Source of the DNA: Psammoneis japonica | Lineage: Eukaryota | Direction: 5' to 3' | Length of the DNA: 64,000 bases | NCBI GenBank assembly: GCA_008632985.1 | Contig: QPGO01000035.1 | Span: forward strand, 297,899 to 361,898 | The notes under the pieces: generated by a model | Told to the model about the DNA's origin: nothing | The model's input: the letters and a program-made list of their open reading frames with translations, nothing else | Database searches by the model: none | Position numbers and translations under genes: made by a program | Part shown: one piece after another, positions 11,856 through 64,000 of the stretch | Layout: every line of letters begins with the position of its first letter | How positions within the stretch are numbered: the first letter of the stretch is position 1

Positions 11856-13438
11856 TTAGAGATCCCAAATGTCTCCGTATTCATGGCGCTTCCCACAATA
11901 CTTGCACGTGAAGGTTTTATCGGTGCGGTAAAAGCTTGGCAGAACATTCTGGTACGCGTCGGGTCCCGTGATGCAATTGGGATTCTTGCAAGAGATTTCC
12001 TTGAAATTGTAAATCTTGGGTGGCATGTCAACCCGGTACTTTGCCTTGACGGATCGGTCGGCAATCAGATTGACCGTGCAACCGGGAGACACGGCTGCAA
12101 GTTTCTTGAGCTCGTTGGGGCTCATTTCGAACACATCAGGCAAGGACATGATGCCTTTGTATTCCTCGTCGGGGTCGCTCGTGTGAAAAACACCATGAGA
12201 GCCTCTCACATTGAGCTTGAGGATGCGTCGAATCTTGGAGATGCGATCCCAAATAATCTCGGGAGACTTGCCCTTGGCAATGTGGTCAATGACCGTGCCA
12301 TCGTCGACGGGTTTAATGCCCACCTTGAAGCGGTCTTCGACGTGCGTCTTGCGAGTGACAGGAATCTCTGTAATGAAATGCTTTTCCTCGCTCTCGGGCT
12401 CGAGGCCCTTGCCGGTAAAGTCACCGCCGAGTTTGCCAGCCACGAGCGAGAGCTCAATGACTCGCGTAAAGTAACCATTCATGGCTTGCTCATCCCATCC
12501 GTTGAGAGGGAGAGCATCCAAAAAGGTTGGAATAACGGGTCGCTCGCGGTGTCGGGGAAGTGGGTGGTAAAAGCGGGTGTTTTCTGGAAGCTCAGGCAAC
12601 CACTTTTGTTGAAAGGTAACAGCCTTGCGGAGATCCTTTTCGCGATCGCGAATCTCATCTCCCATGCGCTCCAACTGAAGGCGAGTAAAGTACCAACAGT
12701 CACAAACCTTACCGGACTTGAGGTATTCTTCAATGCTGTCATACTCTCGAATCTCAAAGCCGTGTTGCAGCATAAGCGTCTTGTACGATTCTGGCATTTG
12801 AAGCTCGGGAGGAGCCACAAGATCGACAATTACCTCTCGAAAAACGCAGAGTCCATCTGCCTTAGAGTGGACGGTACGACCGTGCAGCAAATCTCCAATG
12901 AGCGCCACATGAATCTTGGAATCGTCCCATTGACGCTGTTCGAGAAAGGTGAATTCATCGAGAAACTCTTGCGTGGGATGCTCGTGACGTCCGTCACCCG
13001 CATTGATGAAAACGGGCTTTTCCCGACCGATCCGTTCGGCATACTCGGCGAGTTGTTCCTCCAGCGCCAAGCAGACGCCTTCCATTTTGGTGCGCATGAT
13101 AAAGATAGACCGACGGCCATAACCCACCAGCATCTTGATGGTATCCACAAGACTTCCTTTTTGGTAAAGGACGATGTGGCCGCGTCGAAAATGTTGAGTT
13201 TGACCTCGTGAAAGTTGGCAGCGCTTCGGAAGGACTCTTTGGTACGTGTGGAGGCTTCTAGAAACATGAGATAGACATTGAGGTCTGGGTCGACAATGCG
13301 AAACTCCGTCATGTCCTTGCCTGCCGTCCACGCAGCTTTGAGCTCACGCGTCTTTTGATACAGATAACGCTGCTCATCCACACTCAAATCACCCGCTGCC
13401 GCCAGAGTGCGGCCATGAAAAGGATTCGAGCCAGACAT
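11856..13438 (-). CDS. pyrBI: Aspartate carbamoyltransferase catalytic chain fused to the regulatory chain (PyrB-PyrI); frameshift near 13150
   Basis: ATCase motifs FLEASTRTKESF, INAGDGRHEHPTQ, GDLLHGRTVHS, YFTRLQLER and YHPLPR. These are followed by PyrI motifs DGTVIDHI, KGIM, TVNLI and the Zn ligands CKNPNC...CKYC. Confidence 0.92.
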
Positions 13439-13796: not shown

Positions 13797-15412
13797 TCAA
13801 TCTAACACAGCAATGACTTCCACTTCATACTTGATGGTCCTTGGCCGGACCCACGAACTCTTGTTGGACCACATCAACGTGCAAGCATTATCCACTTCAA
13901 ACGCGCTTTCCGTTTCGCCTGCTGCACCACCCGTGACCAATCTTGAGGAAACAAAACCAAGCTAGCATGAGAAACAATACTTGGTAACTATCTGTAATCA
14001 ACGACAGCAAAGTACACATTTTCACTCACCGATCCTTGATAAGAAAGGCTCCGACAGGCTGGTTTTCCGGATTGCTCTCACACTTGCCTCGAATCACATT
14101 GTACTCGACACTCTGGTCATTGGGAGTGACATCAAACTTCCACTTGAGCACGGCACGTTCACCCTTGGTCAGTTCCATGGTACTTTCCAAAACCTTGAAT
14201 CCAACATCGCCGGCTCCAATAACAAGAGAATTGACTTGACGAAACAACAATCGACCTTCCTTGATGAGACTGCCCTCTTGTGGGACACTCTGAAATATCT
14301 TCAATTGTCGTTCCAGTATATCCACTCGTTCTTGCGCCAGCCGCTTGGCTTCGGCCGACGCAGTCGCCCATTCTTGCAAAGCCGCGACTTGTGCCTCCAA
14401 ATGCAACACGTGCTCTCGATCCGTCTTGATGGTCTTGGCAGCCTCCTTTTCCTTTTGCGCACGCACTTGAGCACTGACACTGGCCTTGGTTACCAAATCA
14501 ATTTCCATTTGCATCTCTTGCAAACTCGATTCCTTGTCTTGCAGCGAACGCGTGGCGTGGTGGCTTCCATCTGGGCCATTTTCAATTCCAACGCAAGGTT
14601 GGACAGCGACTGTTGGAGGGCGTCTCGTTCCTTTTTGAATTCCTTGGCGTTTTGTTCGAGTTGAGACGAACGGTGCAACAGAGCGGAATTGAGGGATTCC
14701 AAGCGTTCAACGCGATTTTTCGATTCGTTCAACTCTTGCATCAACATGCCGTCCATGACGAGTGACGAAGAAGCAGCTGCGTCTGCAGACGGGACTCTGC
14801 AGAAATCATTGTTGCGGAAGCGTTGGGATTAGCAGAAGAGGAATCCTGTCCTCCCGATTGTTGATTGGGAGCTACGCTCAGTAAAGCCCGGTCAAAATTG
14901 GTTTCAAAGTCCGCCAACAGTCCATATGAGTCGGTCGCGTTGCCAGATGATCCACCTTTTTCGTAAGCACTTCGACGCGATGCAGGGCTTGTTCCAACTT
15001 TCGTTGCGTCCCTTCCAACTCATTCTTGGTTTCACGCTGCGCCTTGGCCGAGCGGCCCAGTAGTGACTTGAGTTTGGTAACCTTTTCTTGAAGCGCCACG
15101 TGCTGACGCAACACACTCTGCAAGCCGTTGACTTGCTCCATGGTGACCTTACCGGATTCCAACAGAGACGCAATTCATTGTTGGCTTCTTCCAACGAGGG
15201 AGGCGGTTTTGATTTTTGTGGATTGGAAGTCACATGAGTGGCCGACGGTAATTGTTGAGTATTTGGTGGAGTAAGTGCGGCTGGGGCTGGTGTTTTATCG
15301 GGTACAGTCGCTACAACGGGCTTTTCTTCAGAATCAGCAGTAGGAGCGGTCACTGCAGGCTTGGCTCCGTTGCAGCGTCTGGTGAATTCGATTCAGGGCT
15401 TTCCTTCTCCAT
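13797..15412 (-). CDS. Coiled-coil protein with a C-terminal GOLD-like domain; multiple frameshifts, intron at about 13942-14029
   Basis: Consecutive heptad-rich ORFs 14878-15162, 14490-14756 and 14026-14523. Motif LKWKFDV and a last exon CTLMWSNKSSWVRPRTIKYEV typical of GOLD domains. Confidence 0.6.
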
Positions 15413-23007: not shown

Positions 23008-23409
23008 TGTTGAGCTTCAAGGATCGTTGTTCGAAGGCTTTGCAACTTGAATGGCGCCAACGCAATCCACCCCCCTATTAGGTTACCAACAATAGTGCGA
23101 CAGAATAATACGTGATTTGAGGTTTTGGAGAGATGGTGTTGAGGTTGGAGTCATCTTTTGAAGACGAGTCATTTTGTGAGGACATTTCAGTCATTTTTGT
23201 ATCCCTTATACAAGAAATGAATATTATCCAGCCAGACCAACTGAGACACACGACTTCTTTTGATGATGCGAAGCCTGTCATGCGAAAGAGCGATCAGAAC
23301 CCAGAGAACGTGACACCTGTTTTTCTGCAATGTTGGCCATAAATGCGAATTCTCGCCAACGTAGAGATGCGTACAATTCATACCACAAAAAAAACATAAG
23401 GAATCAAAA

Positions 23410-25120
23410 ATGAGCGACGACAGCAACACCCATTCTGAGAGCGACGATAAGTCTCCAGGAGACTCTCCTTTGTCTAACAAGAGGGTAAATAACGCAGAGG
23501 AAACGGAGGAAGCGTCTTCGGGCGATTCACGAGCTTATGGACGCATTGAAGGAGACTTTTTCGACACTGAAGAGACTTCAAGCGATGAGAACACCATTTC
23601 AAAGACGAGGATGATTCTCAGGCCCCCCAAGAGGCCTTCCAAACCTCAGCGCGACAGTGAACCTCCCAAAAAGAGGGTGGCGCGTGTGAAGGGTTCGAAT
23701 TCGAGGCCCCCTCTTAAAGAGCGAAATGTCAATCACCTTCAAACGAAGCTCGCTTCTGTCCAAGAGCAGCTGGCCACTGCGATCAAAGAACGCAAAGAAT
23801 CTGCCAAGACGTTGGCTGACGCCGAGCGGAAGCTTTCCAAGATGACCGAGCAGCTGTCCGAGAAGAACTTGAAGCTCCTTGGATGCAGGAAGGACGTGTC
23901 GGCATTGACGAAGGCGCTTGGAGCTGAGAAGTCACGCGTTTCGCAGCGCGACAAGAGCATCGCTGACAAAGAGCGAAAGATCGCCGCAGCTCAAGTGAAA
24001 CTTGACGCTGCCGCTGACTCCAAGAAAGAACTTGCATCCAAGCTTCGGACAGTCAATGGAGAGCTCAAAAGAGAAAGTAGAAAGGCTGCCAAGCTGGAAG
24101 AAGCAGCTGGCCAAGTCAGCTTCAAAGACGCCGAGATCAGTCGTCTCCGAGCTGAGGTCAGAGCGCTGGGTGCACTGCAATCAGAAAACAGGCGCCTGAA
24201 GCAGTCCATCAAGGACGAGGCTGTAGCAAAGAGGCAACACGAAGAAAAAATGGCGGAGTTGAAGCTTCAAGAGATCAAGGCAATCTCCAACAAGCGCGCT
24301 GAAGAGCACCAGTTCAAGCGCGATGCTGCAGCCGCCACTGCACACGCCAAGTCTGCTCATTTAGCAAGCAAGCATCACTTCACCACAGAAGCAAAAGAGA
24401 AAGAGCCAAACAGAAAAGAAACAGAGCGACAGAGGCGTTTGGAGACTGCACAAAGTGGAATTTCAGTGGCTTCTCAAATGCAAGGCCTTGGCTTTGGAAA
24501 CCAAGGCATTCTCCAAGCGGTGAGTGGCATGTGTTTGTTTTGTGCACGTGTTGTTTTGGTTGCATGTGATGCATGACTCACTGCTCCTTTTCCTTTTGAA
24601 TGCTTTCACTTTGTACAAGGCATTGGCGGATCGCCAGCGAGCAGCAAACAGTGTGAGCACCTCGTGTCGACTTGCAGTGCAAAGTCTGACTGATGACATT
24701 GTGCACACAAACTGACTGACATCATTGTGCACATTGTGTCTTTTCATGTTACACCAGGCATTGACGGATCGCCAGCAAGAAGCTGGAAGCATTCCACCTC
24801 TTGCTGTCGCAACAGACGGACTCCCCAGTGGTTGGGAGGAAGCCGATGACCCTTCCACGGGGAAGAAGCATCATTGCAATCGGTTGCTCGGAAAAACCAG
24901 GTGGACGAGGCCTGTTGTTGCGCCTCCAGCTCCTTCCAATCCTCCTCCACTGCCACCTCCGCCTGCGCCTCTTCCGCCGCCTCCTGAAGAAAAAGATTCG
25001 GGCAAGGAGAGCCATGCCGGCAGTCAGCATGAATCGACCTCGCAGGCGCAGCTTCAAGAAAGGTTTCCACATTGGCAAAACAAGTGCAATGCGATTGTCT
25101 TTCTCTTGCGGCAGAATTAG
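23410..25120 (+). pseudogene. Transposon cargo gene: long coiled coil, WW domain and proline-rich tail; spliced, TpA-mutated
   Basis: 388-aa coiled-coil ORF with a GTGAGT donor near 24520. A later exon reads LPSGWEEADDPSTGKKHHCNRLLGKTRWTRP (WW domain), followed by PPPLPPPP. Confidence 0.7.
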
Positions 25121-25318
25121 ACATGACAGCACAGTTAGATGACATTTAGGACACCTTGTTTACATTGCGTATAATCTGCCATTAAATTGCGACTCCCAAT
25201 CCATTCTGTAGCTTGCTGCTGCCGCAGTGAGTGGTGCGACGGTGCGACGGTCCGTTTGCAAAAAATTGAACAATGCTGCTGTACACTCTAGCTAGAGATG
25301 ATCCTAAAACCAATGTCA

Positions 25319-26449
25319 CTAACACAAGCAGCTGCTCCAGCAGCCGCAGAAGATCATGCTCTTAAGCATGAGATCTGTTGTCATTTCATTCAGGATCTGT
25401 TGCACATGAAAGATCACCACGTCCGTGTGGGGGCGCGGTTCGAATAAGCTGACAGTTTTTAGGCGCTGCGTCAGAGTCTGAAAGATGAGCTCTATTGGAT
25501 TCAACTTGGGTGAATAAGTGGGAAGGTGCCAAACGAGCACATTCACAGGCAAGCCGTCGGGCCCGGGAGTCGTCCACATTGGATCTTGAAGTGTGTCGGA
25601 TTCCGCACCTTTGTGGATGACAGCATTGTCCAACATTAAAATATCTCCACGATTGAACCACCCTTGAACAAGAAGCATTTCCACAAATGCCATGAAAGCC
25701 GCGCTCGTGCCATTCTCCACTCCAACACTGTGCTTGATGGGCGCTTTTGTCTCATCCACTCCCATGCATGCTGTGAGATTGTACCGCTGCCGACAGTCAC
25801 CATCAACAGCCACATTGTCAGCTGTTCCTGTCAAAGGATTGACTCTCCCTTTTCTGGAAAAAATGTTGGTTCCTTCCACATGCTTTTCATCTGCAAATTT
25901 GAGTCGACGAGGGTCAAACTGTGAGATGAAACGTGTGAACTCAAAGCAATGCACGATGTTCTCGGGTTTAAACTTGTCAAGTGGCACAAGATTGCTCTTT
26001 TTGAATGATGCCTTGAAATCAAACCGAGAAGCAAACCATTCTGAAATAAAAGATGGGGAAACCAATTTGCCATGCGTCACGAGCAGCTCTTCCACATGGC
26101 TCTCATTCGACCTTGAGGGTTGTTGGAAACGAAGCCACAAAAGGTGGCATTCCTCCTCTGGAGTCAAAGCAATGGAACCAACACCTCTTACTCGCTCTTG
26201 ACTGCGAGCAATTATATCAGGATCAACCACACAGCCATCCAAATCAACTTCATCCATTGCTTTCTTCGCAAAGTTCCGAGAAACACGGCCCAATCTTGCG
26301 ACCTCAGCAACCTTTGGCTCCTCGCCTGTGACTGATGTCAATTTCAGTTCTTCACACACCCTTGCAATCTCAAGCTTCTTCAACACGTCATATGACTTGC
26401 CACGCCAGTAAAATCTGCCATTGGCATTCACGTCAAGCCCCGACGCCAT
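25319..26449 (-). CDS. DDE transposase (IS630/Tc1 superfamily, DDE_3-like), probably inactivated by Tyr->Cys/His changes
   Basis: HTH-like N-terminus and catalytic motifs KFADE, MLDNAVIH and LPTYSPKLNPIE. Confidence 0.88.
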   Translation of the reverse strand: MASGLDVNANGRFYWRGKSYDVLKKLEIARVCEELKLTSVTGEEPKVAEVARLGRVSRNFAKKAMDEVDLDGCVVDPDIIARSQERVRGVGSIALTPEEECHLLWLRFQQPSRSNESHVEELLVTHGKLVSPSFISEWFASRFDFKASFKKSNLVPLDKFKPENIVHCFEFTRFISQFDPRRLKFADEKHVEGTNIFSRKGRVNPLTGTADNVAVDGDCRQRYNLTACMGVDETKAPIKHSVGVENGTSAAFMAFVEMLLVQGWFNRGDILMLDNAVIHKGAESDTLQDPMWTTPGPDGLPVNVLVWHLPTYSPKLNPIELIFQTLTQRLKTVSLFEPRPHTDVVIFHVQQILNEMTTDLMLKSMIFCGCWSSCLC

Positions 26450-27087
26450 GCTGCCGAGAATGCAAGTGTCAAAAATCCCAACTGGTGCTTTGCGTCCTCG
26501 ATGCGTCCTCGAATCTCAGGCACACACCAAATTTCTTTTCAAGTCAGTATGATATGAACAAAGATAAATTGTCTGATGCATTTGTGAAGGGTAGTCTTAT
26601 CTGTATTGAACGTTTCAGACGGCATGCCTTTACCGCAGACGTCCATTGCTTCTGGTGTCACACTTCCAGTAAATACACGTAGAAAATGTACTGATGTCTA
26701 CGCACCCCAAATGGGGCTTCGGGTCGCTTTCGAGGATTTTTAGCGCGCACCGCCCTGGAGGAAATCACGTGAAGCCACCCGCTTCACAGCCGAACCCCAT
26801 AGAAATTTGCGCGTGTGTCAGTTGGTCTGGCTGGATAATATATTTTAATAATAAAAGATTAAATAACGCATATATACAATATTGAAATTCCAAAAAATTC
26901 CGCGCGTTTGCACTTGATCAACGCGATCTTTCTGGAGAAGAATCTTTCGCCAAAATAAAGCCAAAGCATATCTCATCCATCCATCCATACGGTACAGTAG
27001 GCCTAAGATCCACTTGTTGCAGCCAACGTCGCTCAGCACACTGGAATTGCATTGGACAGACGCGTTCTCGAACACTCATCCATCGCC

Positions 27088-32923: not shown

Positions 32924-33859
32924 CTTTCTTGACACAAAACTTCTTTAGAAGGCTTCACTGGTAATCACAAGACCTCCTTGGATGACTCGACAACTGCGAC
33001 GCAAGTGGAAAGGCAATAACGCTGCGTTGATTAGTTCGTGGGGTCTTGTAGTTTCAACGCTCTCAACTGTGAGCAGCCGCAAGCGGTGTTGTCGAGCGAG
33101 CGACGCGACGCGACGGTGAGGGTCGAAAGAATCTGTCCGTCATGCGAACATTCGATGGGGCGCCATTTTGATCCCAGCATGTCCAAACGAAATCAATGTC
33201 AAAGTCAGACTATGAAGTTGACCAGCTCCGAAGAAAAGGTGAGGGTTTTCAGTGGGACAATTCTGAGTGGTTTGAAACATGAGGCCAAGCTGTGCCAGGC
33301 CCTTTCAAGACGTGCTCTCGGACAGGCTCTGGGTGGGGCCAGAGGAGCTTGCATGCAGAATTCCATGTGCTCAACATTGCATGCAGCCCCAGCACCCAGG
33401 GCTGGTGGGACATGTCTCCAAACAAGGCATGAGCCTGATTCATGCCACTTTTGGGCCCACTGGTGCTTGGTGCTGGGGGGTCATTGCCGCTGGTGCTTGG
33501 CTTGGTGTGTGCGAAGCGGCGGGACCCAGTGCAGTTGCCAGCCAAAACTTGCAGTGTTCACATGTCACTGCGAATCAGGGCATGTGTTCAACACCACAGC
33601 ACTGCTCTTTGATGGCCAAGAAGGCACCACACTTCTTGTCAGCTTTTGCGACCTCTTCACGCACCTCAAAATGGGGTCGGCAAAACAGCCCCCCATCAAC
33701 ACCTCATGGCACAAAAGAGAAAAAAGACCCAAGATTGTGCTGGAGTCAGATTCTTGAAGGTGGGGGATGGGGCTCAAAATGTTGCAGGAGCATTGATCTC
33801 ATCAATGAGTGCAGCCAACCTCCAGGACTTGATCTGAGCTGCCGTGTCAATGTTGCGAG

Positions 33860-34226
33860 TGCACTGTGCTCGAAGAACGAGTGCAAACGAAAGTAGAACA
33901 GTGTGCGAAAAGTGGAAATTATAAGATTAAATTTTGCTCTGTGATTTTTGGTTTCTCCGAACGAGTTCTCAATGGCCTAAAGCTTCTGTACTGCTTCTAC
34001 AGACAAAAGGCCTTTCGGAGAATGTGTTCGTGACAACAGATTGTCCGGATGCGATTGCTGTTGACACGCAAGATGTCAACATCGTCAATCGATCGTATTT
34101 GCAATTCTCGACATCCGATCAACTCTGTGTGATCGTTCTGTCCTTTGTACGCATCCACGACTGTGGTGCGATTGACACACAAATAATGTGCAATCACAAA
34201 CATGCACGTGACAGTCGCGTGCTGCA
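33860..34226 (-). repeat. 3' LTR of the Gypsy (the more TpA-mutated copy)
   Basis: Colinear without indels with 38232-38598 and adjacent to the PPT. Confidence 0.93.
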
Positions 34227-38598: not shown

Positions 38599-40377
38599 CG
38601 AGAGAAGCTGAGAAGAAGTGTGCTGATGACTGGTGGCTGCACAACAAGAGGAAAAGAGCAAAGGAGCTGCCCAACAGCAAGCAAGCCATGACCCACTTTT
38701 TTGTTCAAGTTTGTCACCTCAAATGCCTGAAACAAAAGGACTTGTTCTTTGGAAATGGCGCCAGACTTTGCCCCCTTGTTCTCTGGCCCCAAATGAGAGA
38801 GCACACTTGGATTGACACGGGCATGAGAAGAGCCTCCAAGCCTCCTCTCATTGTTGCTTCATTTGATCTTTTCAGACCAAGCTCAACTTTTAACTTGCAT
38901 CACAGCATCATCTTCTGTCAACCAATGTCGTTCAATTGCAAGTGCTCAACAGGACGTCCAGGAATGTCTCGGTCAGTCACTTGACGTTTTTCTGCATGTT
39001 GGACAAATTGATGACAATGAGCTTCCACGCAGACACCTGCATGCTTTTTGTACGAGCAAGGGTCGCTGATGGAATCTTTTTTGGTTTTGGAGTTTGTTGA
39101 CGCATCATGCATCATCCCAACCACATCAAAATCTGCATCATTGGCTCAACTTTGATGAGAAACCCACCCAACAATTGGGGTTGACGAGGCATCTCATCAT
39201 GATGCACATCCAGGAAGTCTTTTGGCAGAGCACTGTGTGTGCTGGTCCATCTCAAATCAAGTGGATGTTGGCCACCAGAACAGCGGTCAATCGTTGTCAC
39301 CCTTCCTCAGCAGCCAGCAGGGGGGCATGCAATGGTGGAATGACTGGAGGAGGCCCCGTGTCTGGTGCCACTTTTGCAGATGATGGAAGTGCCGCCACAG
39401 CTCCCACCTCCCATGGAGTGCACAATTGAGACGAAAAACCCTTGTGGCCCTCAACAATTCTTTCTTTGACCCACTGGTGAGCTCTGGAATCTGATGGAAT
39501 CTCTGTGACCTGCAAGTGTTTGAACCTGCGAGTGTTTGAGCACAGAACAATGGAGTCAAATCTGCAAAAACTGTGCTTTCTGCAGGAGAAACACTTCAAT
39601 GATGCCCGCATCATTTTTGTTGTTGTGTTGTTGTTGCTGTTGTTTGCAATGCAGCATTGGGTGTTGCTCTGCAAGGAGTCCTCCACACAGGATTTGAGGC
39701 CAGTTGCTTCTCATGCCTTCAGGCCACACCAAACACTTTGATGGATGTGCGTGCTGTGAGCATCCCCCCAAGCAAGACGGAGCGAGGAGCGGCTCGGCTG
39801 CTGCGCCACTCCCTTGCTGCATGAGGAGAGCCTCCAAGCCTCTTGGCTGAAGCTCAGTGGTCTGCTTTAACACACCATCATTGTTGCTTCATTCGATCTT
39901 TTCAGACCAAGCTCAACTTGCAACTTGCATCATGGCATCATCTGTCAGCCGATGCCTCATTCGATCGATTTCAAGTGGTCAGTCATTTGACGTTTCTGCA
40001 CGGACATTCGAACGATAATGAGCTTCCACATAGAAATCTACGTGCAAATGTACGGGCACGGATCGCTGCTGGAAGAGAATCTTTTCTCGGTTTTTTCAGG
40101 TTGACGCATCACCCCGCATCCGCATCCCATTGCATTTTGCATGCTCGATTCAACACTCAACACCATCGCGTTCAAAAGACGTCAATCCCCACCCACGGAA
40201 CACGGGGTTCACCCAACTTGCTCTACCCAGCCTCATTGTTCGAAGCAGGAGCACCAGTGACGAAGTTTTGTCGAAAGGCCGCTTGCTCTTGAACGATTCA
40301 GATTCGTTCATCCCGAAAATCTAAGTTCGCGTTTGAGCAGATTCTACACAAGAATTATAGTAAAACCTTATTGACTC

Positions 40378-43317
40378 ATGGACTGGCCAGAGAACAACGG
40401 CCCGCTTCCAGCTACGCGAGATGAATTAGAAAAGGCACTCGAGGTGGTGGAGGAGGAAATGATGGATGCAGGGCGAAAGAAAGATTTTGCGCAAGCACAA
40501 GAAAAGGAACAGTATCTTTTGCAGCTAGAAGCGCTGAAAGAGCTCGTGCAGTCCAACAACAAGGAGGAAACAATCGAAACGTTAAACCAAGAAATAGACA
40601 AGTGCGTCCAGGAACGACATTGGAAAAAAGCAAAATGGCTTGATGACGCTTTGCTCAAAATGACGCAGCCTAAATCGCCAGAAACGAGCACCATTGAAGC
40701 CGTTGGAGAGGATGACTGTAACAGCTGCATCCTTCGAGATCACATGACAGTCTTACAGTCATATCCCTTGGCGTGGAGGGATAGGGACAAAGTGATACAT
40801 CCGTTCCCTCTTCCACCGGACTTTGAGCGAGAAGAGAAAACCGTTTTGCAGGCACTGCGTGATGCGACTGCAGACAGGCCACTCGAGATTGGAGTGTCTT
40901 TCTTTGGGGCGACCACCTATCGACTGGCAGCGTTCCTCGCTGCTCCAGGCAACCGTATTTTGCATTTATCGGGACATGGTGATGAAGGAATTCTTGCCAT
41001 AGAAAGTTGTGGAGCCTTGCAGTATTTGACAAATCATGAATTGAAAGAGTTGGTGGAGAACGGACCAGGGCATTTGAAGTTTGTCTTTTGTTCTGCGTGT
41101 TTTTCTCGTACCGCAGGGGAGGCCTTTTACCAAGCCGGGGTACCTCATGTCGTATGCTGCGAAGATAATGTGGATGACATGGCAACCATTGAGTTTACCC
41201 GTAATTTCTACCTGCAGCTTGCCAGTGGACAATATTTGGACGACGCGTTCAAACTGGCCAAGGCTGCTCTCAAGGTAGATGCCGCGGTCGGCGATGCCAA
41301 AGTCATTCTCTTACCCGAGAAAGACGAGGACGATCCTTATCACCATGTACAGATATTTTTCAAAGCATCTGCGGGAGAAAAGAACATCGTGAAGACCCCC
41401 GGAATGGTCAACCGCTCCATGCAACTACCTTCTTCTCCGCCTGGATTCTGTGGTAGACAGTTGGATATGTACAAGGTGATTGACTATCTCAAGAGCTCGA
41501 ATTTCGTCCAAATTTCAGGAGTTCCAGGTATCGGAAAGACGTCTCTCGCCCAAGCTGTGTGTGCCTACATTCACAGACGCATGGACATATTTCTGCTGGA
41601 AGATATCTTTTGGTTGCCGCCTCTGAGCAACAACCACAGTGGCAATGGTGTTGCTAGGTGCCTCCAGGAGGTCGTGCAATCAATAATGTCCAACGAAGTT
41701 AAAGCTGATTGTCACGGCTACAAATTATGCTGCGAGAAGGCAACCGGCCTCCTTCAGTGCATTCGTGGGCTGATATTCATTGATGCTTGCAAAATGCACA
41801 CTACATCTGCATTGGCAAAATTACAGCTGTTTCTCGAGATTGTTTTTCGTGGTGCGTTTCGAGTCTCTGTCGTTCTTATCACCCCTGCAGGTGAAGAGAT
41901 AAGAAGCTAGATTCTACCATTTGACGCGCGCATGGAGCTTGGTCCTATAGATATGAAGGCATCGGCGCTTCTATTTGGCAACCAATGCCAATTGGTGCGC
42001 CAGGGCCGGGATCCGGCAATTCGTACATCACAAGAACTCAAAAATTTGCTTGTCCTCCCAACCTACGCCAGCGCAACGGAAATCATGCCTTCCATGTCAA
42101 AGCGATGCTCTGAAATATTCAGTCGGATCGGAGAGGGGAATCCAAAGTGGATACTCGAAGCAGCTGACGCGATGACAGCAAACCCGCTCTTGTACGACGA
42201 ACTAATTAAAATCGGAATGAGAGAAGAATTTGACCGTGGGAACTTTGAGACTCGTGCTAGGGTGGACCGTGAATGCAAGCGCATCAAAGAGAAATTAGAG
42301 GCTGCGGCCGAACGTTTTGACTATGGGCAAGCAGCACAATTGGAATCAGAATTAGAGGAGCTGGATCAGCTAAAAAAGGTGCTGCCTACTTTAGGAAGAC
42401 TCGAACGTGAGGAAAAAGACTTGTGTGAACGCCTAGCGGAAGCGGACAAATCGAAACATTTTGATACGGCGAAGGACCTCTACTCTGGACTGGTCGAACT
42501 CAGAGAAAAAATCAGGAAAGAAAGGGAAGCCCTGGCAGATAATGAGGTTAGAAAAGACAAGCAAGATGGTGCTCCACCGATTCAGCAAAAAGATTCACAA
42601 GATGATGAGCGACCTCTATCTCCTAGCGCGATTGAAACCTTGTCCGGAATTTGCTCGTTCACCGTTTCTGCTAGCAATCCTGACCCCGAGGACTTCTCCT
42701 TTACGTTGGCCATAACCCAGTCTTCAGTTGTGGATTTTGACTTTGACTGCTCGGGCGGCGTTTCTGCCATTGTTTGTGCCACAAACGAAAACTGCCACCC
42801 TGTTACAGGCACTGCTATTGGGGCCATTAGTGAAGCCGGAGGCAAGGAATTGCAGGATGCTGTAGATGGACTCGAGTCAACAGAGGAGAGCAATTGGGGC
42901 CCCGTCCGGTGTCCGACGGGTGAAGCCAGAATAATTGGGCCTCCCACAGAGACACGGCACTATGGAAGTCTCAAAGTTGAGCACGTGATCTTTGCTGTAG
43001 GACCGACCTATGCAGATGATGATGGACCGGATGCCCTGTCACACAAGGATGAGCTGCTTCGCCTCGCCTACAGGTCCAGCCTCGAACGGGCAAAGGAACA
43101 CCACGTCGTAGCAGTTGGATTTTCCCTCATTGGAGCGGGTCACCGAACCGGTGGTAATTTGGAAAGGCCTTTGCGCATTGCGATTGAGACAATCTCCGAC
43201 TTTCGAGGATACAAGGAATTGAGGCACGTTGAACTTTTCGCTTTCAAACATCGTGAAGCCCTTCTCCTGAAGCGAATTGCTCACGACGTCGCGAAACACA
43301 CCGAAACTCTAAACTAA
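40378..43317 (+). CDS. Multidomain UVR-CHAT(caspase-like)-P-loop NTPase-UVR-Macro protein, interrupted by one in-frame TAG at 41908-41910
   Basis: CHAT His/Cys motifs ILHLSGHG and VFCSACFS. FCGRQLD...ISGVPGIGKTSLA (NB-ARC/STAND-like). UvrB/C-like helices such as LEAAAERFDYGQAAQL. Macro motifs CPTGEARI, HVIFAVGPTY, LAYRSSL and GFSLIGAG. Both ORFs are in the same frame. Confidence 0.8.
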
Positions 43318-45013: not shown

Positions 45014-45200
45014 GCTTTTTTGTCAACTTGCTATTTTTGACATTCTGTGGAGCCATAACGGTGCCGGCAATTAGAGGATGCTGTTTTGCATTCGTTCCCT
45101 AGCTACATTCGAACATGGCAGGGCGATGTGCCGTTGTGGATTGTGGAATTCCAGAATGGTGCGGTGTGGTGGTGCGGGGTGCGGACGGATCGACAAGGCC

Positions 45201-47387
45201 GGGAGTTGCATGAAATGTCAAAATTTTCATTTTTCCCTGCAAAAACGCACAGAATGTCAGAGAGACCTGCCTGCACGTGAGTGCCGCCACAGTCTGCACG
45301 ATGCTGCGAAAGTTTGTGCACTTGCCACCAAAATGCTGCTCGCACTTTTTGCCAGGGGACATGCCACAGACACACAATGTTGCATTTGGCTGCAGGACAA
45401 ATCCTGTGTTTTTGGGGCTCTGTTTGATTTGACAAAATGTCGAAATTCCATGGAAGGTTTCTCAACAATTGCCTTTTTTCCCAACCAGTGCTGAGACAAA
45501 ATGCCCCCAGAAATGCAGGTGGTTGTGTCTTCACCAGACCCCGCCAAAATTTCTCGTTGAGAAGACAACCCACTGGATGGAATGAGAATGTTTAAATGAT
45601 GTTGCACAGTGCGTGAAAAATGACAACCTGCACTCACTCAATTGGGTTGGCATGGTGACATCAAGCACTGAAATGAACGACAAAACGGTGCGACAATCGA
45701 TGATGACGACACCTTCTATCGGTGCCTGCCTGTGCGCTCATTTTCTACTGTATTCAAATTTGTATATCCATATATACATCATAAGTAGTTGCCATGAGCA
45801 CATCACGTTGTCGGTCACGGCGTTTCTGCACGCATGATGATGCGCATGGCACCGTACGACTGCAAGAGACGCCGTTGAGTTCCCTTCTCGATCCCGAACT
45901 CCGATTTGAACCAGTCACGACTGTCTCAACCTCATCGCTTCGTGCGATAGTACAATTTCAAATTCAAACCCGCCAAATAGCTCCAACCGCCAAAACCAAA
46001 AAAGGCCTCTTGGGGGGGACTGGGGCTAGAGACTATTTTGGATTATTGTCGTTCAAGATTCCCTTGCGTGCCGTTCCAAAAGCGTTCCAAAAGCGTTCCA
46101 AAAGCGTTCCGAGAACGTTCTCATATGCACTAATTCGCGCGGAAATCAAACTTTGGAGCCGGTCAATTCGCCAATGAGACATGTGATGCATTGTAATTAG
46201 TGCACTATTGTTAGAACTATTTGAGTATGGCACAATAGTGTAAAAGTTTAACAGATTATATGGATTTATTGCAAAAAGGTACACCCGTCAAAACAGGTTT
46301 CTATTTTCTCTAAGAAAAAGAACGGCTGGTAGAAGTCTCAATAATTTTGAGTTACAGTGGCTATAAGTTGAACTATAAGGGTGTGTTGTAACTACTAGTA
46401 TTGTTTGACAATAAACCATATCTATAACAACCGCCAATAGCTCCAACACGGAAATACCATTCGACGAAATAGGCATTTCGTCATTCCCGTGTTTCCACCG
46501 TTCCGGGACCGTACCAAAAGCGTTCCCGAAGGGAATCTCTCTAAAAGGCCTAACATCAAAACATTGTTTTTAGACGTTGGAAACGAATGAGAACCCTGCC
46601 CGATAATACATGGAACCATCAATCCACCTACGGCAACAAAAACACTGCTGTATGGCAATAGCGCGGTATCAATCATTTTAGCATAGTGTAAAACATCAAA
46701 TGCGCAACACACGACTGTACCACTCACCATGCAAATGCGCCTGCCCAGAGCCACAGTAGATTGTCTTGCAAGGACAGTCATTCAGAGGCAGACAAGATCG
46801 GAATGGATTTGGAACCAATGGGTTCGCGTCATACTTGAGCACTTTGCAGGACATACAGTAGTGTGCGAGTTGTGGGGCCTTCTTCAAGATGAAGGCAACC
46901 TTTCTCATGGGTTCCTGCCCACTCACTTGTTGTGTGCCCTTGTTTTCTGAATCTGCATTGTTCTGAAACCATTTTGCCGGGAATCTGTGGTGGAGCACAC
47001 GAAGACACGATAAGAAAATGGTTTTGTGTCGGAATAGAGTTAATTGTAAATCTGGACTTGTTGCGTACCATCATTCCAATCTCTTTTTGAAAATCAACGT
47101 ACTGGCATTAGCTTCACCATCTTATCATCTTAGATTGACTGGTAACACAGGTTTATGGATGATAATGGCATGCACGGTGACGGTGGACGGCACTGACTTT
47201 CGCTTCGCATCAACGAACCATCGCCGCGTTCGCCGTTCGACCCCATCTTCTATCTGGTGTCTGGTGTTCGCATAGCCCAAAATGCAACGTTTTAGGGGAT
47301 GTGTAAAATGAATTATCGTCACGAAAAAACACGAAAAACCACGAAAAACAGGGAAAAACGAAAATTTCGACATTTCATGCAACTCCC
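45201..47387. mobile_element. Putative non-autonomous TIR element of about 2.2 kb with 39-bp imperfect TIRs
   Basis: GGGAGTTGCATGAAATGTCAAAATTTTCATTTTTCCCTG at 45201-45239 matches the reverse complement of 47349-47387 with 2 mismatches, both CG/CA. No transposase recognised; TSD uncertain (possibly CCG). Confidence 0.7.
46072..46110. repeat. Short tandem repeat (CGTTCCAAAAG) x ~3.5
   Basis: Read directly: cgttccaaaagcgttccaaaagcgttccaaaagcgttcc. Confidence 0.8.
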
Positions 47388-47519
47388 CGGAATCCCCAAA
47401 CGCACTGACAGGCAGACTTTTTTCCCCAGCGCGCACGGCGCGCGTCGCGTAAAAATTAGTTGCTTGCTCGAGACTTGAGCGAGAGACGAGCGAACCAGAA
47501 CTCCAATCTTCACAACTTC

Positions 47520-49600
47520 CGTTTTTGTGTCTAACCTGTTGTTATGTGTCAGGTTGCAACGGAGTCCAACCAGAACTCCAATCACCACATCTTCCTCTAT
47601 TTTCATCGGAAGCATGACAAGGGTGCCTGCTCAATTGTGCAGAGGGCATGGGAGGTGGGATGCGAACTCCCTTTTCCTCTGGTCGGATTTTGGCGAGAGC
47701 CTTTTCATTGACCACTCAGTGGTTGATGATTGCAGACTTTTTCATGTCTGTCAGGCAGTCGGGGGGTCGGGCAGTCGGGCAGTTTGTCCTTCAGAATTTG
47801 AGAGTGTGTCCCTCGGATTTTGGAGCGGCATGTGTTGTTCAGCACAAATTGATTCTTCTGATTTGGAGAATGATCATCAAGGACATTGGAGGTCATGGGG
47901 GCATCCTAAAAAATTGATGAATTCTCTACGATGGGTGCATGGGGAGCTGTTTTTCAGATGAGCTCGAAAGCACTGTGAAACTGGGATTGCCAGTGCGGCA
48001 TGTTGAAAACTGCACTCAGCTTTGAACGAAGACAATTTGTCATGGATTGCACACAAAAAAGTCACATTGAAAAAAAGCATGTTGAAAAATGAGTGGGTTT
48101 GTGCGATGTGCCATTTCAGCGATGAATTGAAAAAAAAGAGTGTCCGTGCACCTCGCTGCAGCCCCAAAAATGGCATGATCCATCAAATGTGACCGTCATC
48201 CACGTGGCCACTCTGCCACTGCAATGCCAGCCCCCTGTGGCAGGGCCCTGCACAAGCACAGGCAGTGCAGCATGCAATGGCACACACCCACACCCACACC
48301 CACAAAGAAAGACAAGTGGTCAATGCTCCCCGTGGGCCTGGTTTCTGGCTGGCCGGCAACTGCCTCACAAAAAGCAAAAAGTTTCAAAACAATGATGCCA
48401 ACAATGCCATCAGTGGCCGTTGTCCCTTTCCACAAGAAGCAGTCATTGGGACCCAACAAAATGCCAATGTTTTGCATTGTCCATGCAGTGGGTGCCTTGA
48501 TGCTGTGCAGTGACGGGGTCTCCTCAAAGGGTTTCACACAATGACTGTGACTGGGACAAGAACAATGCAGCAGCAAAGCCCTCTTCAGGGTTCTCAATCA
48601 ACTTGGGGCTTCTTCAATGGCAGTTCCCTGCCATGATTGTCACAAAACCAGAAAGCAAAGGGTGGCAGTCTACAAGCTGATTGTCTTCAATTGCTCTGCA
48701 GTGAGAAAAACAGTGTGAATGCATTTGGTGAGTGTGAGAAAAAAGCAAAGAAGGAAAACAAAATGAAGTGCAGCACTGGAGTAAAAAGAGGAAAGAAAGG
48801 CAAGGCCAAGAAAGGAAGAAAAAAATGAGGAAGGAATGCAAAACAAAGAAGAGCATCAAGAAGAAGAAGAAAATGCACAAGAAGACACAGAAGGACTCCT
48901 CCACCATTGTCTTCACCAACATCTCCACCAACGTCTCCACCAACAGATGCCCCACTCTGCCACCAAGTCACGGCAAGCAGCAAATTGCTTGAAAAGGCAT
49001 GAGAGAATCAAGAATGTCCTGGTTGTGCTTTGTTTGTGTGAAACCTTCTCTCACACTTATTTCTTCTTTCAAAAATTTAACTGTGCAAGTGCAGCCTTTT
49101 GTTGGAGCAACTGATGCAGCCAGCAGGTTGCAGAGCATTTTGTGGTTGGGCAAAACACCAGAGGAGGCAAATTTCAAGTGCAACAGTTGACATGCTACAA
49201 GATGAAATGTTTGCAAGATGCAGTGAAGCTGGGGCACCAAGAATGCAGGGCTTTGTTGTTGTTCCTGAGAAAGACCAGTTGACAATTCACATTCATCAGC
49301 AGAATCAGAGTGCAGTGGGTGCCGCTGTCATCCCGGAGGCATCCTGATCTTAAACATCAAGCAGACAGGCCATAGAGTGTGTGCAAAAGGCTGTGATCCA
49401 AAAGCACTTGGATGCTGGTGCTGGATGAGAGTTCATGAGAAAGCAGCAGCTGCGTGCATGTCAGCCTGTTGCCCATGTGAGAGCTTGAGAAAATCAGGCT
49501 CATGCATGGTGCGTGAACAACAAAGCTGCTAGCACATGTAAGAAAAAAGAAGAAAAACAAAGATGACAGATGCCCAAGTTTAGCCTGGCTCTCTTGAGTA
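47520..49600. repeat. Heavily degraded, unclassified repeat relic (TpA- and CpG-depleted)
   Basis: Very few TA or CG, an excess of TG/CA, and overlapping Cys/His-rich junk ORFs in all frames. Confidence 0.55.
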
Positions 49601-61935: not shown

Positions 61936-64000
61936 CTGGCTGCCGGCAGCAGTGGCAGCACATGCATTGAACACCTCAAAAGACAGTGTGACTCAGTGAC
62001 TCATGACTCATTGGGCACGATGTCAGCCAACAGCCGGTCCCCACCAAAGTCACCCCAGCGGACTTCAGTGGATTGCAGCCATTGATGGGTGCATGAGCTC
62101 CCATCAATGTTGAAGGTGGCCAGCCACAAATTGTTGACGGATGGCAAGATGTGCCATGATGCCATGTCTGACCTCCAAGATGACCCTCTGCTGCTGGCAT
62201 CTTTGACGAGTGTGGGGGCTGCTGCTGCCAAATCTCTCATCAAGGACTTGTGTGTGGGGTGCCAAAGCCAACAAGCGAAAGGAGCTTGCTGGAGCTCTGG
62301 AAGACAACAACACTCACAAGAACCACAGTGCTTCCTCCAAGCTCATCAGCAACCAGGCTCAAGTTGAGATCACAGCCTCGAGATTCTCTCTCTGCGCTCT
62401 CTCTGAGCCCTCTTCTTCTCCAGTTGGCAGAGCAACCCCACCTGCTGTGCCAGAACTTTGCCAATGAGCACAACTGCTTTCATTGTCACCAAACATGCAA
62501 GCCACCAGATGGCCTTCAAGATTCTCTCTGACAAGACACTTGGAACATTTTGCATCAGCCTGGCATGTGTGCCCTGCCACCCATGATCCTTCAGCTTGCA
62601 ACGTGTGTCTTTGCTCTCCCAGCAATGGGGAGCTTGCTTCGCCTGCCATCAAATCCTGCCACAACAGCTCTGCTGGTTTGCCAGATGGGGAAATCAGGGT
62701 GCACAAGACACCAGTCTTTGACCCCTCAGACATTGTTGAGGGTGCACTTTTCCGGCAAGGGAAAAAAAGACTGACAGCATCATCACCAGGCTTGCATCAC
62801 CACCATGACAGCAATGTTGTCAACAACCCAGAGCGTGCTGCAGCAAGTTCATTTGTTTGGTCAATGGCATCAAGTGACTGCACAAAGAGAAGTTCTTGCC
62901 TGCAATGGCATTGTTCATTTGGCAAAGCAAGAAGAAGTTCTGCCACATGTTGTTGCACAAAGGGCTGCCAAAAAAGCCTTGAGGCATCACTTCAACTTGG
63001 GAAGGTTTGAGGTGCAATGCCATGCTTGGGGGTGGGAGAGTGGGGGCTTCATGGCAGAGACTTTTGGCTGTCATCATCAAGGGCAATCTTGTCACATGTG
63101 CCATCTGCTGTGCTGCATGTCCCGTGAGAGTGACCTTCTTGTTGATGCTGAGGGCCAAAAACATTTCCATGCCACTGCAAGAAACCAGAAGAAGCTCCTC
63201 CACATGGCCAACCAAGCTGGGCTGTGGTCCTCCCACACTGTGCCTTGCTGCAAGCATTGTCTTGAAGCCCCTCCTTGGGACCACAAACATGCGCCATGAC
63301 CCTCAACAAGTGTGGCAGCAACTGCAAATGGGGAGAGATGCAGCGGATCTTCAGATGAGCCAACTTGATGAGTGATCTGTCTTCCATGACTGGAGCTGCT
63401 GCAAGGGCTCTAGGAGCATCCCAGCTGGATGCAAGAAGATCTGAGTGCACCTGGTGTGTGTGCAGTGTGCAAAGCACAACAGCACATTGTGGGACATGAC
63501 TTGTGGTGGACATCACAGCATCTGCTCTGGTGGAGCAGCATCTCCTCATGGGCTTTGCCTGGTGATCTTCATGGCCAAGCTCAATGAACTCAAGATTCAG
63601 GCCACCGGCAATGGCAGCGCACCACACCTTAAAGCTGCAGTGAAGAAGAAGTTGCACATTGTTGTGGACCCTGAGTTTGAACAAGAGAGCTTGAGGGTCA
63701 CATCCTTCTCATTGCTCACAAGGCTCTGTGTGGCCTTTGCAGCTCTGGAATCAGGTTGCTTGTGAGTGCTTTCCTGATTGCCTGCATGCTGAAAACACTT
63801 CTTCCCCCATGCCTTTCCAACAAGCCTGACATCTGGACACACAGGCAGGGAGACCTCTGTGAGTGCACTGCAGTCTGTGTCAATGACCTGGATGTGATCA
63901 CTGTGAAGGGTCCCCAGGAATTCATGGATGCTGTGTCAACATGAAGTGCAAACACTCAAGCTCAAGGGCACTGGACCAATTGCGTTGGCACTCCATCTTG
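61936..64000 (+). mobile_element. Ty1/Copia (CoDi-like) pol relic, extremely mutated, continuing beyond the window
   Basis: Remnants GCKKI*VHLVC, KALCGLCSSG, KPDIW..GDLCECTAVCVNDL and KLKGTGPI correspond to the Copia RT motifs GYKKIRVHLVY, KALYGL, YVDDL and KLKGTGP. Confidence 0.85.

Follow-up and report, generated by a model that had tools for sequence, protein, structure and literature searches.

Within a 64,000-nucleotide stretch of the Psammoneis japonica genome (contig QPGO01000035.1 of assembly GCA_008632985.1, positions 297,899 to 361,898 of the forward strand), which we call the window and whose own numbering is used throughout, lies a multi-copy transposon of about 3.6 kb (body ~23224-26838). 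This element is bounded by terminal inverted repeats (TIRs) and carries a second, or cargo, gene in addition to a gene for a DDE_3 transposase. The bodies of both genes contain very few TpA (TA) dinucleotides, and the best explanation for this scarcity, one that we consider probable, is hypermutation of TpA within the gene bodies of the transposon. Much of the depleted DNA is enriched in TG and CA. Within the window, the depletion is confined to the element and other blocks that look foreign, and the element encodes proteins in which conserved tyrosines have given way to histidine and cysteine. By analogy, the process would be of the same kind as the TpA hypermutation that the main text of a 2026 preprint describes for Bigelowiella natans (Mettrop et al., bioRxiv 10.64898/2026.01.13.699255).

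According to this proposal, gene bodies would be struck by mutations of TpA to CpA or TpG, which are A:T to G:C transitions and could fall on either strand. Such changes would remove tyrosine codons (TAY to CAY for His or to TGY for Cys), the ATA codon for isoleucine, and the stop codons TAA and TAG. A slower decay of CpG to TpG or CpA, which we infer to be deamination of 5-methylcytosine (5mC), would act on the same DNA.

TA scarcity in the two genes

An original prediction, made from the sequence alone, held that the core of this element has few TA dinucleotides, and the counts bear this out. Positions 23700-26450 hold 34 TA, which corresponds to an observed/expected dinucleotide ratio (o/e) of 0.20 versus 0.49 for the whole window and a median of 0.52 for sliding windows of 2751 nt. 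Equally low values occur elsewhere in the window only at 46.7-50 kb. The counts of tyrosine given in the same prediction are also correct, with one in a 388-aa cargo open reading frame (ORF) and four in the 376-aa transposase. Expressed as TA o/e and tyrosine content, the values are 0.21 and 1.1% for the transposase, 0.16 and 0.3% for cargo exon 1, and 0.06 and 0% for the cargo exon that encodes a WW domain, whereas ten host ORFs in the window range from 0.42 to 0.71 and from 1.4% to 3.4%.

The depletion is arranged in two cores. Core A (23541-25117) retains 6 TA (o/e 0.07, with a CG o/e of 0.76), and core B (25516-26547) retains 10 (o/e 0.14, with CG, TG, and CA at 0.71, 1.56, and 1.42). The middle segment (25118-25515), which lies between the cores and over the 3′ ends of both genes, holds 17 TA (o/e 0.60; CG 0.75), and the left and right ends of the element have TA o/e values of 0.51 and 0.76 and CG o/e values of 1.11 and 1.02. 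Each of the two cargo introns contains a single TA (o/e 0.16 and 0.13), together with a CG o/e of 0.24 and 0.37 and a TG/CA o/e of 1.7-2.9.

Loss of TA removes TAA and TAG and makes no stop codons, which results in many overlapping ORFs in the element. Across all six frames, core A contains 67 TGA, 5 TAA, and 3 TAG trinucleotides, compared with 2616, 993, and 932 in the whole window, and the expectation that stops are not created by this process is therefore upheld. Because no stops can arise in this way, the open frames of the element are uninformative with regard to age or selection, and long open frames in such DNA more generally are no proof of either selection or youth.

Two controls were applied to the transposase. 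First, expected dinucleotide counts were simulated for the protein it encodes, with the codon usage of the host. The gene contains 15 TA where 41.4 are expected (z -5.3), 44 CG where 71.8 are expected (z -4.4), and 208 TG plus CA where 155 are expected (z +7.4), while host genes give observed/expected TA values of 0.54-1.06 under the same simulation. CpG had been described as abundant in the element, and this is true in a relative sense (o/e 0.73 over 23700-26450), but it is depleted when judged by the simulated count and by the values for the introns. Second, the gene was compared with 55 metagenomic relatives, which are the long matches (roughly at least 900 nt, a threshold of our own choosing) among 80 loci, the other 25 having been dropped. 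These relatives have a TA o/e of 0.65 ± 0.12 (minimum 0.27), a tyrosine content of 4.0% (minimum 1.8%), and a TG/CA o/e of 1.13 ± 0.14. The window transposase falls below all 55 in both TA and tyrosine, and its TG/CA o/e is 1.47.

Direction of change in proteins and between copies

The transposase gene (25319-26449, minus strand) encodes a protein of the IS630/Tc1-mariner type that matches PF13358 (DDE_3) with an E value of 1.5e-11 and a score of 44.8 bits versus a cut-off of 28.6. Twenty homologues were found, all of which contain PF13358, and the protein collection has no entry identical to the window transposase. Residues D187, D274, and E320, which we take to be the DDE triad on the basis of the family motifs DE.., DN..H, and NPIE, occupy invariant alignment columns and are intact. 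The proposal that the process inactivates the transposon by missense change is not borne out at these positions.

To read the direction of change, we used an alignment of 13 of the 20 homologues, leaving out the shorter or weaker P0011, P0013, P0015, P0016, and P0018-P0020; the homologues are kin to each other, and the Fisher p values given here are correspondingly rough. Nine columns of the alignment have tyrosine in 50% or more of the other proteins. There, the window transposase has three Tyr, two Cys, two His, one Leu, and one Met, whereas among the 97 cells of the 13 homologues, 72 are Tyr (Fisher p 0.018) and 5 are His or Cys (p 0.0026). Codon 118 of the minus-strand gene is CAT for His (26096-26098) in a column that is Tyr in all 13 homologues. 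Other Tyr columns are occupied by C32 (TGT, 26354-26356), C168 (TGC, 25946-25948), H240 (CAC, 25730-25732), and H308 (CAC, 25526-25528), all on the same strand.

Some of these sites had been singled out as positions where tyrosine is plausible, namely RVCEE, EECHLL, SHVEELLVTHG, and WHLP, all of which are present in the transposase. The consensus is indeed Tyr at RVCEE (9 of 13 homologues) and SHVEE (13 of 13), but EECHLL corresponds to a column that is mostly Phe, with Tyr in P0001 only, and WHLP lies in a mixed column with Tyr in 5 of 13. Tyrosine is also found in 8 of 13 homologues at the site KHSV and in 6 of 13 at HCFEF, where another four have Phe. The Cys and His residues of the window protein thus depart from the consensus of its homologues at the RVCEE site, where P0001 also has His, at the SHVEE, HCFEF, and KHSV sites, and at the C terminus.

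At that terminus, the homologues have a conserved Tyr in ..CGY (12 of 13), and five of the 13 end directly after this position, in G-Y or G-C. The window protein instead reads ..CGC-W-SSCLC. Its codons TGC TGG (25337-25342, minus strand), as read from the sequence, place Cys370 at the conserved Tyr and Trp371 immediately behind it, and the frame extends 6 residues past Cys370 to a TAG at 25319-25321. This is the pattern expected if TA was lost, because TAY would become TGY and a TAG stop would become TGG.

A broader count yields the same direction. Replacements of the types Y>H, Y>C, I>M, I>T, and V>A were classified as TA-loss types, and departures were counted from a 50% consensus. TA-loss types make up 10 of 64 departures in the window transposase versus 19 of 826 in the 13 homologues (p 1.2e-5), although one of the counted I>T codons is ACT and does not fit TA loss. 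Types expected from CpG loss amount to 3 of 64 versus 11 of 826 (p 0.07). Replacements corresponding to T>C and to A>G on the sense strand are about equal in number.

The cargo gene lies on the plus strand and runs convergent to the transposase gene; its exons, gt...ag borders, and frame were read from the sequence only. Exon 1 (23410-24519) has 370 codons that include one Tyr and covers a coiled-coil region. Two introns with gt...ag borders (24520-24619 and 24653-24757) flank a predicted optional exon of 33 nt (24620-24652), and exon 3 (24758-25120) encodes the WW domain (~24821-24913) followed by a PPLP-rich tail and a stop codon. The 388-aa cargo ORF that had been reported exists as a frame, but it joins exon 1 to an 18-residue tail that comes from reading through into the first intron. 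Exon 1 gives only coiled-coil Pfam matches, all of them sub-threshold, and a search of proteins between 203 and 648 aa in length yielded no homologue with E ≤ 0.001. We also observed a 42-nt direct repeat (24604-24645 and 24742-24783, 81% identical) that duplicates the end of a cargo intron and the start of an exon. The repeat spans two acceptor sites, leading to two predicted alternative in-frame exons that start with ALADRQ or ALTDRQ.

The WW domain matches its Pfam model with an E value of 4.7e-5 and 23.8 bits, which is below the cut-off of 26.9, and NEDD4-like WW chains in the PDB match exon 3 at E values of 4.6e-6 and above. The two W residues and the P of the WW signature are kept, and the central aromatic pair is HH. 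As had been noted, the aromatic site reads CAT CAT TGC for HHC (24869-24877, plus strand). In the PDB chain alignment, HH aligns with YY of NEDD4L and C aligns with V. The search with this exon was dominated by multi-WW proteins, and only the WW part of nine near relatives was used; no full-length orthologue was present among the 150 matches listed. In these nine relatives, the first position is Y in all, the second is Y in eight and F in one, and the third is C in five (YYCNR). The comparison indicates that YY became HH, as had been suspected, and that the C in the third position, which had been attributed to the same change, is ancestral. For the transposase and this WW pair, sequence comparison makes a mutational loss of TA, to CA or TG, well supported.

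Differences between copies of the element provide another view of the process. The element begins and ends with TIRs of 32 nt (23221-23252 and 26810-26841), the left being 94% complementary to the right. These arms had been called perfect, which is true of the outermost 24 nt (the arms were compared by reading) but not of their full length, where 30 of 32 positions pair. A terminal word of 21 nt occurs exactly at both ends of the element and nowhere else in the window, with 0 occurrences expected. A TA abuts each end (23222-23223 and 26839-26840) and is likely a target-site duplication, as judged from its position. TA at both ends fits IS630/Tc1-mariner elements.

Neither the element nor its transposase has another copy in the 64-kb window, and a scan of viral contigs found no relative. 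One sequencing run, the only one found to contain the element and not recorded as RNA, covers 76% of the element's sampled words, and the data on copies are the contigs of this run, which is possibly the source of the assembly itself. Contig depth is 87-359 inside the element, whereas most bins of the flanks lie at 50-62 and the outermost at 84. From TIR to TIR, depth is 2-6 times that of the flanks, and on the right side it drops from 178 to 61 outside the element. Contigs of the flanks also break at the TIRs, with the left stopping at 23249 and the right beginning at 26811. Together, the excess depth and the breaks imply that the whole unit, including the cargo gene, is repeated a few times in the genome. 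The element exists as several diverged copies.

These copies differ at 152 places, of which 134 are transitions (36 A>G, 42 T>C, 27 C>T, and 29 G>A). Forty of the 152 places were listed, and the 37 that lie within the element were classified. They comprise 8 adjacent CA<->TG doublets (16 rows), 8 TA-type singles, 9 CpG-type singles, and 4 others, such that 33 of 37 are interconversions among TA, CG, TG, and CA. The window retains TA in six of the TA-type singles and has lost it in two, and it has lost CpG in 7 of the 9 CpG-type singles. CpG transitions had been expected to be the rarer kind between copies, and the listed differences speak against this in part, CpG-type ones being as common in plain counts as those of TA type. 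A CA<->TG doublet appears to be one self-complementary dinucleotide that was resolved differently in two copies. The ratio of about 1:1 between doublets and TA-type singles would fit a TA process close to saturation, and it would be unexpected from a modest decay of CpG.

CpG loss, eroded blocks, and alternative explanations

Eight blocks of the window, covering ~11 kb, have o/e values of 0.06 for TA, 0.46 for CG, 1.54 for CA, and 1.67 for TG, and their other dinucleotides are near baseline. Outside these blocks, the values are 0.56 for TA and 0.97 for CG. Seven of eight TA-poor 1-kb windows combine a TA o/e below 0.25 with a CG o/e below 0.7, versus 1 of 56 others (p 1e-7), and no block in the window has low CG with normal TA. 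The two cores of the transposon have TA-to-CG log-decay ratios of 9.0 and 2.9. Among the blocks, the ratio ranges from 9.0 and 6.8 in those rich in CpG down to 1.8 and 1.4 in the CpG-poorest, a trend suggesting that TA was lost in an early burst and that CpG decayed more slowly afterwards.

TpA loss in the element outpaces rather than precedes CpG decay, which has already begun. In the original prediction, the TpA process was both faster and earlier. Its greater speed agrees with the per-site loss of TA, which goes beyond that of CpG in both cores, but its precedence does not hold: the cores have already lost part of their CpG, and in the introns, whose few sites are presumably neutral, CpG depletion is as deep as that of TA. 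The two processes were also thought to be separable, and this applies to B. natans, where hypermutation in the main text of the preprint falls at TpA only and CpG shows no corresponding changes, rather than to the window, where the two losses co-localize.

Several observations weigh against TpA hypermutation or narrow its reach. CpG loss occurs where TA loss occurs, is equally deep in the introns, and is not separable from it here. G:C to A:T changes are in excess, as judged from the CG o/e values of the cores (0.71-0.76) and the introns (0.24-0.37) and from the 9 of 37 listed differences that are CpG-type; a second, superimposed process may explain this loss. TA remains at host level at both ends of the element and in its middle, which would not be expected if a simple process acted on the whole element. 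The list of copy differences is incomplete and possibly biased. The protein consensus derives from distant homologues (32-63% identity) and is not an ancestral reconstruction, and P0001, at 62% identity, has His or Cys at two of the Tyr columns, while some I>M changes are common to P0001 and P0003. These common states imply that part of the change is older than this copy. Finally, TG/CA o/e is at baseline (1.14) in the homologue-free cargo exon 1, and a host-like coiled-coil ORF used as a control (14026-14706, minus strand; region 14301-14900) has a TA o/e of 0.18, an observed/expected TA value of 0.40, and a CpG o/e of 1.10. Coiled-coil composition alone can mimic TA poverty, and the scarcity of TA and Tyr in exon 1 may therefore be compositional.

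One alternative is that nothing happened in place and that the gene bodies arrived already poor in TA, by horizontal transfer from a TA-poor donor genome or by descent from a depleted master copy. We hold this to be unlikely, though with a share of the probability that is not trivial. Only 12 of the 37 listed differences fall in the depleted cores (~2.6 kb), whereas 19 fall in the 0.4-kb middle segment with its normal TA, and so few differences in the cores imply that much of their TA loss may be common to the copies and older than the last amplification. The His or Cys states already present in P0001 fit the same view. However, the unrelated TA-free blocks in the same 64 kb point to a process of the host, and TA-type changes and doublets specific to individual copies do exist. 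Moreover, if the copies do have the loss in common, the mutational process behind it would be no different, only earlier in the history of the family.

Another possibility, which we judge to be improbable, is that one process, such as a single deaminase or a state of silenced chromatin, raises transitions at both self-complementary pyrimidine-purine steps, TpA and CpG. Its appeal lies in the strict co-localization of the two losses (7 of 8 versus 1 of 56 windows), in their equal depth in the introns, and in the main text of the preprint (bioRxiv 10.64898/2026.01.13.699255), which cites ADAT2 enzymes with deaminase activity on A as well as on C in DNA. A single process would nevertheless have to produce a log-decay ratio that varies between 9.0 and 1.4 and that tends to be lower where more CpG is gone, for which a burst combined with a slow clock is the better fit. 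In B. natans, moreover, TpA accounts for 230 of the 231 mutations within hypermutable regions, according to the same text.

A poverty of TA that is merely compositional or selected, arising from amino acid usage, codon or codon-pair bias, UpA avoidance in mRNA, or a lineage that is simply poor in Tyr, is very unlikely. In its favour, TA is scarce in the host genome as well (o/e of 0.56 beyond the blocks), host ORFs fall below the codon-usage simulation (0.54-1.06, and 0.40 for the coiled-coil gene), and cargo exon 1 shows no TG/CA excess. Against it stand a transposase beneath all 55 relatives in TA and Tyr and 7.4 sd above expectation from its own protein in TG plus CA, a His in a column that is Tyr in 13 of 13 homologues, TA-loss types at 10 of 64 versus 2.3% in homologues, introns that are TA-poor with a TG/CA o/e of 1.7-2.9, and CA<->TG doublets between copies.

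Further observations concern DNA other than the transposon. Complex, non-repetitive blocks that are nearly free of TA and CG are located at 1-1700, 33101-33900, 38601-40000, 45101-45700, 47501-49500, and 62001-64000, the last of which has 2 TA and 18 CG in 2 kb and a TG/CA o/e of 1.85. No Pfam domain was found in the ORFs tested within these blocks, which are unrelated to the element and hardly related to each other. They probably represent mobile or foreign DNA that is old and has been completely eroded. For genome annotation, such TA-free blocks call for caution, since they yield spurious long ORFs in all six frames. Among the 42 TA that survive in depleted blocks, TTAA accounts for 9, versus 93 of 2088 outside (4.8-fold over-representation), and ATAC/GTAT for 0 versus ~5 expected, while words of the form NTGC and NTGG are enriched ~1.7-2-fold. 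These small counts, which are confounded with CpG decay, hint at a preference for certain flanking bases, in which GTA/TAC would be targeted and TTAA spared.

Some metagenomic relatives of the transposase have dinucleotide patterns of their own. In a contig that encodes a relative with 39% identity (L011, positions 241-1080), the core has o/e values of 0.15 for TA, 0.47 for CG, and 1.58 for TG/CA, between flanks with a TA o/e of 1.0 and 0.69. The encoded protein has His at one consensus-Tyr column that is also changed in the window, and its Tyr content of 2.1% is among the three lowest of the 55. The TA-loss process may also act in the organism from which this contig came. Three other relatives (L014, L016, and L040) combine a CpG o/e of 0.41-0.66 and a TG/CA o/e of 1.29-1.38 with a normal TA o/e of 0.57-0.62, a pattern that suggests CpG decay without TpA loss in other hosts.

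Two neighbouring loci are also worth recording. Adjoining the TA-free block 38601-40000 are two adjacent ORFs (40375-43317, plus strand), one encoding a CHAT protease with a STAND NTPase and the other a Macro domain, which look like a eukaryotic immune-type gene pair or a single gene. A host CHAT protein has no identical entry in the protein collection and matches others at 33-40% identity only, and an atlas look-up of a host amidase placed it no more finely than Eukaryota. In addition, a single ORF at 11856-13343 (minus strand) encodes a fused aspartate carbamoyltransferase (ATCase), in which the catalytic domains are joined to both PyrI regulatory-chain domains.

Comparison with known systems

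Among elements of the IS630/Tc1-mariner type, the transposon is ordinary in having a DDE_3 match above the cut-off, short TIRs, a flanking TA, and the aligned D, D, and E residues. It is unlike them in carrying a second, intron-containing coiled-coil/WW gene within its TIRs and in having His or Cys at conserved Tyr positions.

Several known routes of sequence change can be set beside the pattern in its gene bodies. Fungal repeat-induced point mutation (RIP) converts CpA to TpA, and thereby enriches TpA and creates stop codons. The process proposed here resembles RIP as a mutational defense against repeated or foreign DNA that uses dinucleotide-specific transitions, possibly copy by copy. RIP itself does not match the blocks, in which TA o/e is 0.06 and CA o/e is 1.54, CpA and TpG have been gained, and TAA and TAG have been removed. 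Deamination of 5mC cannot remove TpA. It shares with the present case the loss of CpG and the gain of TpG and CpA confined to transposon-like blocks, whereas TA o/e here is at most 0.18 throughout the listed TA-poor blocks while CG o/e spans 0.13-1.10. ADAR-type editing changes A to G on one strand, has a preference for the 5′ neighbour only, and needs an RNA intermediate. Hyper-editing of this type does not fit, as the AA o/e inside versus outside the blocks is 1.25 versus 1.18 and the AG o/e is 1.04 versus 0.94, both strands are affected, and the element is a DNA transposon. A transcription-strand bias was rejected, because TG and CA o/e values are similar in both gene bodies and T>C changes are about as frequent as A>G.

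A fuller account can be offered, but only tentatively, since we regard it as possible and on the whole doubtful. It would be a RIP-like defense of opposite direction in a second eukaryote, in which an early, near-saturating burst in gene bodies spares the termini and the DNA between genes, prefers GTA/TAC over TTAA, and is followed by decay of CpG. Because the process makes no stops, the family would keep intact-looking genes that are poor in Tyr, and it may still transpose.

The closest parallel to the hypermutation of TpA is found in B. natans. In mutation-accumulation lines of this species, two integrated regions, one from a giant virus and one from a virophage, carried 231 de novo mutations, of which 230 are A>G or T>C changes at TpA. 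The rate is ~6e-7, about 1000-fold over background, and episodic, as seen in some lines only (main text of bioRxiv 10.64898/2026.01.13.699255). The same text reports that TpA-depleted coding sequences (CDS) are enriched for DDE endonuclease and reverse transcriptase domains, and an ADAT2-like adenine deaminase acting on DNA is proposed there, untested by its authors. So far, TpA-targeted DNA hypermutation has been reported only in this one preprint. Our literature searches returned no other TpA-directed defense and nothing on cytosine methylation in Bigelowiella.

The two cases are alike, as far as the preprint's main text describes the first, in the change of TpA to TpG or CpA on both strands, in its location in blocks of foreign DNA, and in the presence of DDE-endonuclease genes among the depleted CDS. 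In the window, A:T to G:C change at TpA is seen as an excess of Y>H/C, I>M/T, and V>A replacements and as TA-type singles and doublets between copies. It lies in foreign or mobile blocks, the TA-free ones being devoid of host Pfam domains, with the host-like coiled-coil gene at 14301-14900 as an exception. The cases differ in their target, which in B. natans is a giant-virus or virophage insert and here is a small, multi-copy DNA transposon. They differ also in that the loss here is confined to gene bodies and is joined by loss of CpG. The backgrounds are dissimilar as well: TA makes up 6.0% of dinucleotides in the B. natans genome, compared with ~3.4% in the window (from its o/e of 0.49), where host genes have long, uninterrupted ORFs.

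The transposon offers a compact and well-bounded example of this kind of hypermutation, with a protein family that can be used to polarize the changes and to read their effects on proteins, namely Tyr to His or Cys, Ile to Met or Thr, and stop to Trp. Loss of TpA and of CpG on the same blocks, in proportions that shift with the amount of CpG lost, makes it possible to test in which order the two processes act and whether they are independent, what local rule directs the loss to gene bodies rather than ends, and which sequences the enzyme prefers. The main text of the B. natans preprint contains 0 occurrences of 'CpG', 'tyrosine', or 'stop codon' (bioRxiv 10.64898/2026.01.13.699255). The kind of process is already described there, and what the transposon adds is the signature at the protein level, the restriction to gene bodies, a TA loss that is nested with that of CpG, and the CA<->TG doublets by which copies differ.

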